Under the pieces are notes generated by a model. The model was not told the DNA's origin. It ran no database searches and worked only from the letters and a program-made list of their open reading frames with translations. From an uncultured Candidatus Saccharibacteria bacterium (lineage in GTDB: Bacteria; Patescibacteriota; Saccharimonadia; Saccharimonadales; CAIOMD01): 55,050 nt of DNA. Below are positions 11,637 through 16,501 of the stretch, piece after piece. Numbering within the stretch: the first letter of the stretch is position 1; each line of letters starts with the position of its first letter. A program made the translations under genes and the position numbers. The stretch spans positions 1-55,050 of the forward strand of contig CAIOMD010000001.1 of assembly GCA_903859365.1 (NCBI GenBank), in the 5' to 3' direction.

Positions 11637-13118
11637 TTATACAATTCCGCCTAGATGATGAATTTCACAGACATGAGAAGTGTTCATAAGCCACTCACAT
11701 CCATGGGTTTTTGCAAATGCTGTTGCTTTTGCAGGCCCCCATGTTCCTTTATCATATTCATAAAGATGTTTATTATCTTTTTCCCAAGCGCTTAAAATGG
11801 GCTGGAGAATTTTCCAGCAACGTATCACTTCATCACTGGTTGCGAATAAGCTTTGATCACCCGTTATGGCATCCACGAGAACTCGTTCATAGGCGTCCGG
11901 CTGAATATCCTTAAAGGAAGTTTCGTAACAGAAATCCATATCTACTGGTTCTAGTTCATTTTTAAGACCAGGTTTTTTTGCAAGTAGCCGTATACCGATT
12001 CCTTCATTTGGTTGAATACGAATAGTTAGCATATTCGGTGTGATTTTTCGTCTTGTTCTGTCTTTGAAAACAAGTGTGATTTCAGTGGTTTTTTCCTTCA
12101 AGGCCTTACCGGTTCTGAGTAAGATTGGCACACCTCCCCATCTAGAATTATTAACCGTAAGATGAACCGCGGCATAGGTCTCAATATTCGAATGAGCATT
12201 TTTTACTTCATCTCTATATCCTGCATATTGACCTCGAATGGCAATCTCATTAACATGTCTTTTTTTAATTGGTTTAACGGATTTAAGAAGTAAGAGCTTC
12301 TCCTTATGAAGATCTTTGGCTTTCATTGGTTGAGGAACATCCATCATGGTAAGAGCCATAAGTTGTAGTAAATGACTCTGTATGAGGTCACGCAGCGCTC
12401 CCATCCCTTCATAAAATACTGCACGCCCCTCTATATCAACTTCTTCAGCAGCAGTGATTTGAATATAGTCAACGAATTGACGATTCCAAATTCCTTCAAT
12501 TAAAGGATTACTGAAACGAAAGGTAAGTAAATTCTGTGCCGTTTCTTTGGCAAGGTAGTGGTCAATACGATACACCTGATTTTCTTTAAAATATTTTTTT
12601 ATAAAACCTACTAGATCTTTAGCACTTGCTAGATTAGTCCCAAATGGTTTTTCAACTAATATTCTTTGGGAAATATTTCCAGATTCCTTGTTCAGCCCAG
12701 CATTCGCAAGACAAGTAATAACACTCTTGAAAATCGATGGTGGGACTGCGAGATAATAAAGATGGTTTAGCTTTTCACCATTTTTTCTATCAATCTCCTG
12801 AAGTACGTTCTTTAATAAGAAGAAATCTTCGGGGTTTTCACTATCTAGTGTTAATACTCTCGATCTATTCTTAAAAAGATCAGTTACTTCTTGTATATTT
12901 TGCTGTCCTTTGCGCATTGGTTCATCATCAATTTTCTTTAGTATTGATTCTTTTGTTACGTCAGGATTTCTAGAAACGAAAATTATTTCAAACTTTTCAG
13001 GGACGAGATTGCCTTTGAGAAGATGATATATCGCTGGAAGTAATTTATTCTGAACAAGATTTCCGGTAGCACCAAAAATCACTAAGACAGTTCCGTTTGA
13101 ATTATTCGTTAATGCCAT
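11637..13118 (-). CDS. zwf: Glucose-6-phosphate 1-dehydrogenase
   Basis: IFGATGNL, EKPFG, RIDHYLAKE motifs. Confidence 0.96.
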   Translation of the reverse strand: MALTNNSNGTVLVIFGATGNLVQNKLLPAIYHLLKGNLVPEKFEIIFVSRNPDVTKESILKKIDDEPMRKGQQNIQEVTDLFKNRSRVLTLDSENPEDFFLLKNVLQEIDRKNGEKLNHLYYLAVPPSIFKSVITCLANAGLNKESGNISQRILVEKPFGTNLASAKDLVGFIKKYFKENQVYRIDHYLAKETAQNLLTFRFSNPLIEGIWNRQFVDYIQITAAEEVDIEGRAVFYEGMGALRDLIQSHLLQLMALTMMDVPQPMKAKDLHKEKLLLLKSVKPIKKRHVNEIAIRGQYAGYRDEVKNAHSNIETYAAVHLTVNNSRWGGVPILLRTGKALKEKTTEITLVFKDRTRRKITPNMLTIRIQPNEGIGIRLLAKKPGLKNELEPVDMDFCYETSFKDIQPDAYERVLVDAITGDQSLFATSDEVIRCWKILQPILSAWEKDNKHLYEYDKGTWGPAKATAFAKTHGCEWLMNTSHVCEIHHLGGIV

Positions 13119-13132
13119 CTTATAACCCTTCT

Positions 13133-14035
13133 TTAGGACTTATTAATACTATGCCCACCGAATTTGTTTCTTAATGCTGCTAAAATTTGTGTTGCGTAAG
13201 ACACTTCACCATTTTGGCTATCAAATCTTACTTTTAACGCATCTTCAAGCACTGGCATTTTAACGTTGCTCTTGCGTGCAGAATCAAGCGTCCATCGGCC
13301 TTCACCAGAATCAGCTACATAGCCGTCAACACCTTCAAGACTTGGATTTTCCTGATAAATCTCAACCATAAGTTTATTGAGTGTCGATTCTACGATGCTG
13401 CCATGCTGCCAGACTTCTGCTATCTTTTCCATATCGAGGCCTTCCATCGGGCCCTCTTTTAAGAGCTGATAGCCTTCTGCCATAGCTTGCATAACTCCGT
13501 ATTCTATTCCATTGTGAACCATCTTAACGAAATGACCACGACCTGATTCACCCATATAGGCATGCGCACCTTTGGGTGCAGCTAAAATATCAAAGGCTGG
13601 TATCATTCTTTCGTAATTTGCTCTGGATCCGCCAACCATTAAGCTAAAACCATTACTGAGTCCCATAACGCCGCCACTTGTCCCTACGTCCATCATATCT
13701 ATATTTTGAGCTGCAAGTTTCTCGGCATGGCTCATGGTTTCATTGAAATTAGTATTTCCGCCATCAATTAAAAGAGCGCCTTCAGGCAAGAGAGGTAGGA
13801 AGGCGTCAATTTCGTCTGAAGTGAAGTTTGAAGGAATCATAAGCCATATAACCGGATTCTCTCCAAGCATAGTTACCAATTCTTGTCTGCTTGTGGCAGC
13901 TTTAGCGCCACTTTGTACTGCTTTTTCAACGGCCGTCGAATCTACATCAAGTACAACCATTTCGTGACCAGCCTCAGAAAGTTTCTTTACGATCTGATAA
14001 CCCATTTTTCCGAGTCCAATAAATCCTATTTTCAT
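13133..14035 (-). CDS. gnd: 6-phosphogluconate dehydrogenase (decarboxylating, short type)
   Basis: GLGKMG, IDGGN, GTSGG, GHFVKMVHNGIEYG, LRNKFGGH. Confidence 0.95.
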   Translation of the reverse strand: MKIGFIGLGKMGYQIVKKLSEAGHEMVVLDVDSTAVEKAVQSGAKAATSRQELVTMLGENPVIWLMIPSNFTSDEIDAFLPLLPEGALLIDGGNTNFNETMSHAEKLAAQNIDMMDVGTSGGVMGLSNGFSLMVGGSRANYERMIPAFDILAAPKGAHAYMGESGRGHFVKMVHNGIEYGVMQAMAEGYQLLKEGPMEGLDMEKIAEVWQHGSIVESTLNKLMVEIYQENPSLEGVDGYVADSGEGRWTLDSARKSNVKMPVLEDALKVRFDSQNGEVSYATQILAALRNKFGGHSINKS

Positions 14036-14694
14036 TCTAGTTTCCCCTTGTTATAAAGTATCTCATATTGTTTTGCATTTTTGATAAGTTGCGATGGATA
14101 ATCTACTGGATCATGAACTTCGGAAACCGCCATAACAGCAGATTCTTTTTCATCACCTTCAATATATGCAAAAATCATATCAATTGAGCTAATGAAATGT
14201 GGGCTGATAGAAATTCTCTCAAACGTGTCTGAGGAATAATCAACCACAAGATTAGTAGAATCATTAAAGTTGATTCCTGGCAATATTCCTGCTGTATGAT
14301 TATCGGCACCAATACCCAAAACTGCGATTATATAATCTGAGATTTCTACAATACTTGCTAGCTTGCTTTCATAGTTCTTTGCCGTTTGATTGCGATTAAT
14401 CCCAGCATTCACTTCCAATATTTCTTCGAATTTAGATACATAATTTAGTAACCCGAGTGTCTTAAGCAAGTGAGCGTTTGAGTCTTCGGAATCGTAGGGA
14501 ACAAATCGTTCATCAACCATAGCGACTGACATATTTTTTCTCACTGAATCATCGAGCATGCTCAGGGCAGCTACCCCTATCGAAGCACTTGAACCGCCAC
14601 TCAAAAGATATAGAATTTTTTTTGAACTATTTTTTTTTATTTCTTCAGCAACTCTGCGCTCTGCTTCAGTTTTTGTTACGTTTTGCATTACCAT
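14032..14694 (-). CDS. pgl: 6-phosphogluconolactonase
   Basis: LSGGSS, DERFVP...SN, LGIGADNHTAG; first gene of pgl-gnd-zwf. Confidence 0.85.
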   Translation of the reverse strand: MVMQNVTKTEAERRVAEEIKKNSSKKILYLLSGGSSASIGVAALSMLDDSVRKNMSVAMVDERFVPYDSEDSNAHLLKTLGLLNYVSKFEEILEVNAGINRNQTAKNYESKLASIVEISDYIIAVLGIGADNHTAGILPGINFNDSTNLVVDYSSDTFERISISPHFISSIDMIFAYIEGDEKESAVMAVSEVHDPVDYPSQLIKNAKQYEILYNKGKLE

Positions 14695-14772
14695 TAGTAT
14701 AATCTATGAGCCTCATCTTTTACTAGAGTAGTGTTGTTTGAGAAGTCTGCTTTAGCTATAATTACAAACCAC

Positions 14773-14849
14773 GGGGCATTGGCGCAGTTGGCTAGCGCGC
14801 TTCCATGGCATGGAAGAGGTCAAGGGTTCGAATCCCTTATGCTCCACCA
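14773..14849 (+). tRNA. tRNA-Ala(GGC)
   Basis: Cloverleaf; anticodon arm cttcc-at-GGC-at-ggaag; G3:U70 pair; CCA end. Confidence 0.96.
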
Positions 14850-15202
14850 TTGTCATGTTTCAGATTTTCTGGGACAGACGAACCCTCGCACGATATCTAA
14901 CCGTCGAGGCTGGTTATCAATCGTTGCGCCAACCGTGAGGGTGCCTCAGGCTTGAGGTGTGCGCCCACCATGAAGAGGCACCTTGGCGGCCTCTGACCCT
15001 CGTGAGATTGTCCAGGCCTTGGTGTGGGCTTGGACAGCGTCGGATACGTGGAGCGCTGGCGTGCGGACCCGAGTCACCGTGAAGGGCAACTCCTGGATCT
15101 CGACCTTCTCCTTCGGCTCGTGAAGCAATGACTCGAAACGAGCGAAGGGGATGGACCGAGGTCCGATGCCTTCTGGTGATGGGTTAACGAACGTTGCGAG
15201 CG

Positions 15203-15715
15203 TCAGGCCGAAGTGGCCGCTGCGTTGTAGGCGTCGAGTTGTCCGGACGCTTCGATGTACTCCTCGACCCAGCGGGCCATGACCGCACTGGTCTTCTCGA
15301 CCTTCTCGAACTGACCGACAACTTGACCGACGGGGTTGAAGGCGACGTCCACGGTCTGGTCAGGCCACTTGTGGGTTGCCGAGACCGCCATGCCCGACAC
15401 CATGTACTGCAGCGGCATGCCGAGGGGCTCTGGATTGCCTTCGGCCGCCCAGGCTTCGTTCCAGTCGTTCTTGAGCATCCGGCAGGGCTTGCCCGTAAAG
15501 GAGCGGCTACGCACCGTGTCGCGGGACGTGGCCTTGATGTAGGCCGCTTGCTGGACGGGGGTGTTCTCGGCCTCTTCGACCATGAGCCACTGCGAACCCG
15601 ACCAGGCACCTTGGCACCCGAGGGCCAGAGCTGCAGCGATCTGCTGGCCGGAGCCAATTCCGCCGGCAGCGAGAACAGGACGAGGGGCCACGGCCTTGAC
15701 GACTTGGGGCCACTG
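15203..15715 (-). pseudogene. Nitronate monooxygenase (2-nitropropane dioxygenase-like), C-terminal half only
   Basis: WPQVVKAVAPRPVLAAGGIGSGQQIAAALALG..GAWSGSQWL...SRSFTGKP resembles mycobacterial Rv1894c-type NMO (recalled, not searched); upstream of about 15715 the frame is antisense to another gene and shows no NMO N-terminus. Confidence 0.8.
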
Positions 15716-15722
15716 CACTAGA

Positions 15723-16031
15723 ATGGAAGACATGTTGTGGATTGTGTTGCCCATCGCCATCGTGCTCATCGCCGTCGTTGGTTCAGTTCTGCTCACCCGA
15801 AGAAATGGGGGAACGGGCAACGACGTGATCGTCGAGTGCAGCGATGGCCATACGTACACGACCACCTGGATCCCGGCGGTCTCCTTCAAAGCCGTGCGCC
15901 TTGGTCCCACGCGAGCGCAGTACTGCCCCGTGGGGCGACACTGGACCAAGGTTCACCAGGTTGATCCCACCACCCTTGATGAAGAGGTGCTCGCAACGGC
16001 GCGCACCGTGCACGACCTCCGCATCCCTTAA
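15723..16031 (+). CDS. Small membrane-anchored protein with Cys/His (putative Zn-ribbon) motif
   Basis: MEDMLWIVLPIAIVLIAVVGSVLL TM helix, then C-x-x-G-H...WIP..S.K..RLG...CPVG.HW; high GC3 codon usage; resembles an actinobacterial hypothetical family. Confidence 0.7.
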   Translation: MEDMLWIVLPIAIVLIAVVGSVLLTRRNGGTGNDVIVECSDGHTYTTTWIPAVSFKAVRLGPTRAQYCPVGRHWTKVHQVDPTTLDEEVLATARTVHDLRIP

Positions 16032-16045
16032 GCCGGATTCGCTAC

Positions 16046-16501
16046 CTACGAAACTATTTTTTCGGCTACTGCTTCTTTGATTCCATATTTTGCCTGCTGA
16101 GCCAGACCGTTTGCAACAACCTGCGTATCTTCATAAACATCAAATTTATATGCTTTACCCCACCGGATGGAAATAAAATGGACGCCTGGATTTACATATT
16201 TTTGTCCATTAATAAGCTTGGTCGTCGCCACCCATCTGGCAATTACTAATGTATTCCAAGGAAAACCTTTTACTACAACATCGTTAACCTGGAATGTAAG
16301 CTTAGGTAGAACTCTGCCTAATCTTTCAAACCATTTTCTTAAGGCATCTTTATCATGACGAGTTCCACCTAATGCATGATCACCAGCAAAATGATGAATT
16401 ACGTTACTACTGATACCCCCAAGAACTTTATTATAATTATGATTTTGTACATCAATAAATGTATCTCTGACTTTCTTCGTAATAATCCTTTTATATATCA
16501 T
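16046..16501 (-). CDS. SnoaL-like/NTF2 family protein
   Basis: HHFAGDHALGGTRH...WFERL...GFPWNT...YEDTQ pattern; 151 aa. Confidence 0.8.
   Translation of the reverse strand: MIYKRIITKKVRDTFIDVQNHNYNKVLGGISSNVIHHFAGDHALGGTRHDKDALRKWFERLGRVLPKLTFQVNDVVVKGFPWNTLVIARWVATTKLINGQKYVNPGVHFISIRWGKAYKFDVYEDTQVVANGLAQQAKYGIKEAVAEKIVS

Follow-up and report, generated by a model that had tools for sequence, protein, structure and literature searches.

Directly behind its sole tRNA-Ala(GGC) gene, the chromosome of a bacterium that is likely a member of Saccharimonadia carries a foreign insertion whose joints can be read on assembled contigs; that it is real and derived from Acidimicrobiaceae we hold to be nearly certain. 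All coordinates refer to the window, the whole stretch of 55,050 nt that was analysed, which belongs to the recipient genome G000 (716 kb, 99.9% completeness). For comparison we used G001, a sister species of the same genus, G141, a lake Acidimicrobiaceae genome, and G044, which shares the genus of G141, as well as loci designated by L-numbers. The likely assignment of G000 to Saccharimonadia is based on its size at this completeness, a VirB4-type gene and a flanking orphan protein whose nearest clusters belong to Saccharimonadota. The original prediction described a sharp rise in GC after the CCA of the tRNA, and this is what we find: GC is 61.7% in the insert and ~39.5% on average in the rest of the genome (SD 2.8, maximum 56.6%, 2,335 windows of 1,204 nt), which places the insert 7.9 SD over the genome mean, and GC3 is 0.80 and 0.75 in two cargo frames and 0.25–0.35 in four flanking genes. 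The exact edges were set by comparison with empty alleles. The predicted left edge at 14850, the first base 3' of the CCA, was correct, but the right edge lies at 16053, 8 nt further than the predicted 16045. The tRNA, the insert with its parts and the adjoining host gene are the following:

14773–14849, plus strand: recipient tRNA-Ala(GGC), intact and host-type through its CCA, the landing site (ARAGORN).
14850–16053, no strand: the whole foreign insert, 1,204 bp, in place of 14 bp of host spacer (empty alleles).
14851–14919, minus strand: terminal repeat plus the decayed final codons of an IS481-type element that targets tRNAs (matches at 24 of 25 conserved end positions, defined as those kept in at least 85% of 20 ends).
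14920–15032, plus strand: decayed 5' scrap of an ISL3-family element, with leader hairpin, first codons and a stop at codon 5 (similarity).
15033–15078, plus strand: final codons of the donor locus's flavin monooxygenase gene (identity to L130 87% over 46 nt, to G141 76%; FMO-like Pfam match).
15080–15197, plus strand: probable last codons of the ATPase gene of the donor locus, with spacer (weak match, 76% over 51 nt, E ~1e-5, pairwise search).
15203–15718, minus strand: 3' half (171 codons) of a nitronate monooxygenase-family (NMO) gene, without start or promoter (PF03060, profile 186–272 of 331).
15696–15724, plus strand: predicted sigma-70 promoter of hybrid origin, spanning the internal joint (10/12 consensus match).
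15732–16031, plus strand: intact 99-aa gene, inverted relative to the arrangement in G141 (best match, the gene beside NMO in G141).
16032–16053, no strand: right tail of the insert, which gives the host SnoaL-like gene its last codons and stop (protein-end comparison).
16046–16501, minus strand: host SnoaL-like gene, still 151 aa across the right joint (PF12680; ORF list).

We checked the joints on contigs assembled from 8 of 23 runs (X1 and X3–X9). The entire segment 13500–17500 lies, with 0 differences, in one 17.2 kb contig of X1 (depth 21.4) and in one 19.3 kb contig of X3 (depth 17), and contigs of X4 bridge all three joints, with depths of 52.2 to the left and 51.6 to the right of the insert. 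A second study also bridges joints with 0 differences, the left one by 14500–15165 and the right one by 15985–16400 in X6, and the right one by 15961–16447 in X5, all on contigs of low depth, equal to that of the flanks. X7 and X8 gave partial cover only; an X8 contig that covers 15 nt of host sequence at the left joint and a 204-nt contig of X5 reaching 7 nt over the internal joint were not counted as bridging, and the internal joint is bridged in the first study only. The two insert-carrying studies may be one lake or campaign. Coverage across the joints, to which the original prediction had looked for a sign of mis-assembly, is even with that of the flanks on the contigs that span them. An assembly chimera, in which a Saccharibacterium contig would have been mis-joined at the tRNA to a co-occurring actinobacterium, could appeal to the abundance of such a relative in the carrier samples (a G141-like organism in X4–X8, depth 53–91) and to the fact that X1–X4 may be source samples of the assembly, but it is hardly credible, given that the same outer joints recur at flank depth in independent assemblies, the second study included, that the co-occurring actinobacterium is 5–7% different and its reads cannot yield the insert sequence, that a variant of the SnoaL-like protein made by the right joint is recorded on 11 contigs, and that a mis-join would not lead, 1.2 kb further on, back into the syntenic host gene.

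The empty allele was found in X9, a run of a third study, where 14849 is joined to 16054 via 14 different bases in a strain that differs from the flanks of the window at 18 of 1,350 and 33 of 1,447 bases (~98% identical). The site is likewise empty in G001, with a similar 15-nt spacer. Since both this strain and the sister species are empty, the empty site is the ancestral one. The base after the CCA in the insert differs from that in both empty alleles, and positions 14781–14849 of the tRNA are 100% identical to G001. At the other edge, the SnoaL-like protein ends in IVS in the window and in IES in 10 other variants of its cluster, at equal length. A complete zwf-gnd-pgl cluster (oxidative pentose phosphate) lies immediately upstream of the tRNA, at 11637–14694, with gnd and pgl assigned by Pfam and zwf by cluster name. 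The next-highest GC of the genome (~55%) is found elsewhere, at C4:13100-15200 of G000 (L182), in two orphan ORFs of 259 and 329 aa, the second proline-rich, with no Pfam match above cut-off. The clusters of these ORFs have 16 and 49 members on long contigs, and the observations suggest an older feature of the lineage, not a fresh capture.

The original prediction reported an absence of mobility genes, which holds for intact genes, but it had missed the remnants of two insertion sequences at the left edge. The first is an IS481-type terminus that starts with TGT and carries the conserved motif of its subgroup; the transposase gene is represented by its decayed last codons, and G000 has no rve_3 match. 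The terminus lies 26 nt from the start of the tRNA T-arm motif. Among 20 distinct ends from fetched Acidimicrobiaceae loci, 18 are found after a T-arm motif, 16 of them at 25–26 nt and one each at 27 and 31 nt, and the remaining two (L124, L146) follow sequences without the motif. The tRNAs that carry these ends vary (Ala, Arg, Val, Leu, Thr, Gly and others), and a DNA search with 14850–15200, the tRNA excluded, gave matches in 36 of 201 Acidimicrobiaceae genomes. Loci of the element are L120–L129, L133–L147, L185, L192, L196 and L197, with leftover short ends common among them. Six elements are complete (L121, L128, L140, L147, L196, L197); they measure 1.2–1.35 kb, show a 15-bp duplication of the tRNA end and carry no cargo, and the two more divergent ones come from the genus of G141. 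The transposase of these relatives has HTH and integrase core domains, and among named plasmid proteins the closest to it is an 'IS481 family transposase' (44% identity). A second IS end and the 15-bp target duplication are absent at the right edge of the insert. Within 401 genomes of the recipient's order we detected no transposase above 29% identity (4 at 23–29%), and the pattern of a tRNA followed by an IS end occurs in one of them, G000 alone. Our literature search retrieved no account of tRNA targeting by IS481-type elements, nor is there anything on it in the consulted portions of PMC12500396 and PMC2516522. The tetranucleotide CTAG at the internal joint was considered as an IS481 target and dropped, there being no IS sequence at that joint.

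The second remnant is a scrap of 113 nt with an in-frame stop, 76–79% identical to L114 and L116–L119, and assigned to the ISL3 family through the ORF of L117, a DDE_Tnp_ISL3. It is a 5' scrap alone, with no intact ISL3 element (terminal repeats and transposase) in the insert, and its decay has gone further than that of the NMO piece. In Acidimicrobiaceae it is common to find short IS ends and 5' scraps of ISL3 directly behind tRNAs. ISL3-family elements or their 5' scraps lie shortly 3' of Acidimicrobiaceae tRNAs at L114, L116, L117, L118 and L147, and the scraps of L114 and L118 end at nearly the same point as that of the insert.

The remainder of the cargo derives from a locus of the G141 type, in which the gene order is flavin monooxygenase, ATPase, DUF3024, NMO and the small gene. 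The insert keeps the end of the flavin monooxygenase, the probable end of the ATPase and the 3' half of NMO in the order and orientation of these loci, with ~1.6 kb missing between the first two pieces. The stretch 15080–15713 is gap-free and ~90% identical to one contig of X9. The NMO half had been recognized in the original prediction, and the Pfam profile agrees; lacking its start, it is predicted to be a pseudogene. At 15714–15727, a 6-nt match to the donor NMO resumes past the internal joint after a 3-nt offset. The inversion or deletion at this joint appears to have used microhomology.

By sequence comparison the pieces of the insert are of Acidimicrobiaceae type. The NMO half is 93% identical to G141 in DNA and 98.8% in protein, 93–94% being the best identity of the insert to any sampled genome, and in a tree of 32 rows, built with 31 chosen loci, it forms a clade with G141, L130 and L131 (support 96/96). 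The proposal of a recent, unameliorated acquisition from an actinobacterium is thereby supported, and its source is narrowed to Acidimicrobiaceae, not mycobacteria. A search for the donor thus yielded a close relative, but the exact donor was not found among at least 80 genome loci (among the matches listed), in 301 genomes of the order, 5 of the genus and 201 and 251 of the family, or in metagenome scans, of which one confirmed 0 of 377 candidates and another gave 2 loci, both G141-like. In X4, three short contigs identical to the NMO piece at 15273–15622 have depths of 96–155, compared with 52 for the recipient; this excess may be the summed coverage of collapsed strains or may come from a closer donor population.

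The changes specific to the window in the NMO piece are synonymous in 18 of 20 cases, so most of the divergence would have arisen under selection in an unsampled donor lineage. Two private replacements affect positions that do not vary in any of 88 homologous loci, one of them beside the joint, and drift since the inactivation of NMO seems to be well under 1%. Synonymous window-specific changes comprise 11 GC-to-AT and 4 AT-to-GC, too few to call amelioration. The small gene, on the other hand, is only 56–62% identical to its G141 counterpart, compared with the 98.8% of the NMO piece, which points to a different allele or to more than one donor source. Carriage by a phage or plasmid was considered and rejected: no viral contig has the IS end, the transposase search gave no locus, and the one plasmid match, of 28 nt, is a chance one.

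The small gene is the sole intact gene of the insert, and its relatives are mostly actinobacterial, as had been proposed. Among 251 Acidimicrobiaceae genomes its best match is the gene of G141 that lies beside NMO, and a search of 250 other genomes from the order of the recipient detected it in none. The 99-aa protein has a predicted N-terminal membrane helix followed by a beta-rich, zinc-ribbon-like Cys/His domain, in which C, H, C and H are invariant across 19 sequences. It has no Pfam match, and its structure model (pLDDT 83) gave no Foldseek match at E <= 0.001; the best Z, 3.2, was to ribosomal zinc-ribbon-like folds, from which no function follows, nor is the lack of a match evidence of a new fold. 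Our best guess, based on the model, is that of a membrane-anchored zinc-binding protein.

The predicted promoter of the small gene takes its -35 box (5/6 matches) from the antisense NMO piece, followed by 17 nt, the -10 box and 7 nt to the ATG, a leaderless layout. It is one of three such sites in the window, and promoter-like sites in the region number 2 with 2.1 expected; as there is no excess, the case for it rests on its position. Leaderless starts are frequent among relatives of the small gene: 13 of 22 loci, of which 3 come from near-identical strains, have a -10 box 5–7 nt ahead of the start, and the -35 boxes score 1–4 of 6. The same layout is found in promoters of the recipient: in G000 a -10 motif occurs 6–9 nt before the ATG with 93 counts among 547 crudely called ORFs, the level elsewhere being ~6 per position, and 18 of 24 strong sites are intergenic, pointing to many leaderless mRNAs in this genome, which retains the anti-Shine-Dalgarno sequence at its 16S 3' end. 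The small gene is therefore predicted, from its layout, to be the one part of the insert still expressed. A DNA-directed run search returned no RNA run with the stretch.

Several routes could have joined this DNA to the chromosome. The best explanation, to which we give about an even chance, is recombination in the last 8 nt of tRNA-Ala(GGC) coupled with an illegitimate right joint. The donor would have had a decayed IS481 end and an ISL3 scrap behind its own tRNA-Ala(GGC), and both would have come as passengers when the tRNA-Ala(GGC) genes of donor and recipient, 77% alike, paired. For the acceptor stem to stay functional, the crossover would have had to fall inside the shared last 8 nt, because any exchange further upstream would mispair the stem of the sole tRNA-Ala(GGC); a surviving recombinant should therefore look like the one observed. 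The far end would have been joined 14 nt into the host spacer, with the SnoaL frame kept by luck or selection, and deletions and one inversion, some probably already present in the donor, would have reduced the cargo. Finally, the internal joint would have placed a ready -35 box ahead of the small gene's own leaderless -10 box. The tRNA-Ala(GGC) of the recipient and that of the donor genus match at 59 of 77 positions, last 8 nt included. In the genus of G141, the gene ends in the recipient's 8 nt in 4 of 4 genomes where it was recovered, and is followed by four different sequences; in G044, a decayed end of the same IS type lies behind it. RecA is present in G000, and MutS was detected neither in G000 nor in 3 relatives.

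Some observations go against this route. The two tRNAs share no identical stretch longer than 13 nt, which is short for RecA. The NMO locus of G141 is not adjacent to tRNA-Ala(GGC), and a comparison of 8 tRNA/IS loci with 8 NMO loci of its genus found no shared DNA, so that the donor arrangement it needs has not been seen. Further, the IS end is well preserved and stands at the exact spacing of the element, which transposition would explain directly. A possible but less probable alternative is therefore that the donor's IS481 transposase put a cargo-carrying or composite element behind the recipient tRNA-Ala, and that most of the cargo, together with the far end, the 15-bp duplication and 14 host bases, was subsequently lost by deletion. 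Besides the distance to the T-arm motif, the wholly host-type tRNA, the base after the CCA unlike both empty alleles, and the occurrence of the element at tRNAs in the donor genus all agree with such an event, and transposition from foreign, non-replicating DNA is described for Acinetobacter in the portion consulted of PMC8116780. It requires, however, cargo between two ends and a transposase active in the recipient, while the second end and the duplication are missing, none of the six complete elements carries cargo, and no transposase was found in G000 or, above the identity given, in its order. In addition, plain IS insertions should outnumber cargo-laden ones, yet the tRNA-plus-end pattern is confined to G000 in that order. 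For these reasons we favour recombination at the tRNA end, with the IS remnants as passengers, over transposition.

A quite improbable alternative is the remnant of an integrase-driven island or prophage, in which a recombinase would have placed an element at the 3' end of the tRNA before being deleted itself. A 12/14 match to the tRNA T-arm (16020–16033 and 14829–14842) lies 20 nt inside the right edge; shuffles reach 12/14 in 3 of 2000 cases when confined to the last 60 nt and in 13 of 300 when the entire insert is used, and the match was noticed after the fact. The part examined of a published transfer from Actinomycetota to Saccharimonadia (10.64898/2026.09.16.751625) has recombinase genes beside tRNAs. 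However, the match coincides with the small gene's conserved final codons, off the edge and followed by non-host sequence. Neither the ORFs nor any matched piece of the insert contains a recombinase or integrase remnant, the IS end at the left edge requires no integrase, and no viral contig was found with this end. The match also lies at nearly the distance of a target duplication from the right joint, and the sequence after it is not host-like.

Whichever the joining route, the DNA had to enter the cell. The original prediction gave natural competence as an example of how it did so, which the gene content of the recipient does not support. We did not find comEC in G000 (Pfam, tblastn, custom profile) or in G001, nor dprA in either genome. 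In the family, 18 of 22 other genomes have comEC, directly upstream of yebC in G002, G005 and G009. The syntenic site (C2:13150-16200 of G000, L184; L202 in G001) is mid-contig and contains toxin-antitoxin-like small genes instead, and G000 and G001 have one common comEC-less junction sequence. As this junction is common to both and the insert is absent from G001 and from the 98% strain, the loss of comEC and dprA likely preceded the insertion. Both genomes of the genus thus appear, from their gene content, to be Saccharibacteria without natural competence genes. In another member of the family, G003 (L176, L177), dprA is broken by stops and comEC was not found, which suggests a separate loss of competence. 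Saccharibacteria are naturally competent, and comEC mediates transformation in a cultured Saccharibacterium, according to the sections consulted of PMC10187176; this and the presence of comEC in most of the family would favour natural transformation via ComEC, either before the loss or by way of a competent relative from which the allele was then received. We consider it improbable, on account of the comEC-less mid-contig junction, its presence in G001, the absence of dprA there and the restricted occurrence of the insert. Most likely, judging from these genes, the DNA entered without ComEC. Transfer during cell contact with the donor would be the simplest reading, and transduction or vesicles may also have served as routes. 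A VirB4-type gene is present in G000, and the function of the relaxase-less type IV secretion system of Patescibacteria is not settled in the part consulted of PMC12102498. A fuller account, speculative and rather unlikely as a whole, would be that a competence-less Saccharibacterium takes host DNA during attachment, perhaps via this secretion system, that the host is a lake Acidimicrobiaceae, that the end of a tRNA-homing transposon of the host marks the landing, and that a membrane zinc-ribbon gene was domesticated by the promoter at a deletion joint.

Transfer from Actinomycetota to Saccharimonadia near tRNAs is already known, and stronger evidence for the partners has been published, as far as the consulted parts of the sources go (10.64898/2026.09.16.751625; PMC10031880, PMC12455944). 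The closest case is that from Ca. Phosphoribacter to Ca. Lutisaccharimonas (10.64898/2026.09.16.751625), which, in the portion seen, likewise concerns actinobacterial DNA close to a tRNA on a contig of Saccharimonadia, takes it as pointing to the host and includes checks for mis-assembly. That transfer comprises five genes that are over 99% identical to a sampled partner; it has recombinase genes and is supported by FISH and CRISPR. The insert described here is instead a mosaic of scraps with no recombinase, its filled and empty alleles are resolved, its recipient is without comEC and dprA, and its donor, from the class Acidimicrobiia and matched at 93–94%, is known from sequence alone, not from physical contact. 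Islands described in Patescibacteria (PMC12455944, PMC10031880) are similar in that inter-phylum DNA lies in streamlined genomes and is read as close contact; in the part consulted of PMC12455944 very recent events are not captured, whereas the present insert is variably present in near-identical strains and is known at base resolution.

The comparison extends to mobile elements and to joining mechanisms. The insert is far longer than the microindels of short-patch recombination of the SPDIR kind. Homology-facilitated and double illegitimate recombination (SPDIR; 10.1101/2023.11.22.568220) resemble it, in the part consulted, in that a short host stretch is replaced, with no duplication and with joints at short matches, and DprA, which suppresses such microhomology integration in Acinetobacter, was not found in the recipient. 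These systems, as far as seen, are described in naturally competent cells, and the anchor of the insert is a 77%-identical tRNA. IS481 family members with ~15-bp target duplications (PMC10045372) agree with the TGT terminus and with the domains and duplications of the relatives; the insert keeps only one ~70-nt end, and the consulted part of that source does not mention tRNA targeting. The insert is neither an integrase island nor a complete IS481 or ISL3 element, and it did not come through the Com system that the recipient has at present. What is new is the resolution of filled and empty alleles to the base, the Acidimicrobiaceae donor, the non-competent recipient and the predicted promoter formed at a deletion joint.

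The significance is limited by the fact that the kind of transfer is published, that most of the cargo is dead, that this is a single event and that functions are predicted from sequence only. Leaderless promoters common to donor and recipient would give an actinobacterial gene a simple way to work at once. The hosts of lake Saccharibacteria are largely unknown, and some of these bacteria have been seen unattached (PMC9166423, in the part consulted); our literature search retrieved no report of the class Acidimicrobiia as a host of Saccharibacteria. The donor is possibly the host of the recipient, and the capture names a testable partner in this class. In the literature examined (PMC10187176, in part), the Com system is the only uptake route shown for transformation in Saccharibacteria. 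A recipient that lacks ComEC and DprA therefore raises the question of how foreign DNA enters such cells, and makes a contact-dependent route testable.
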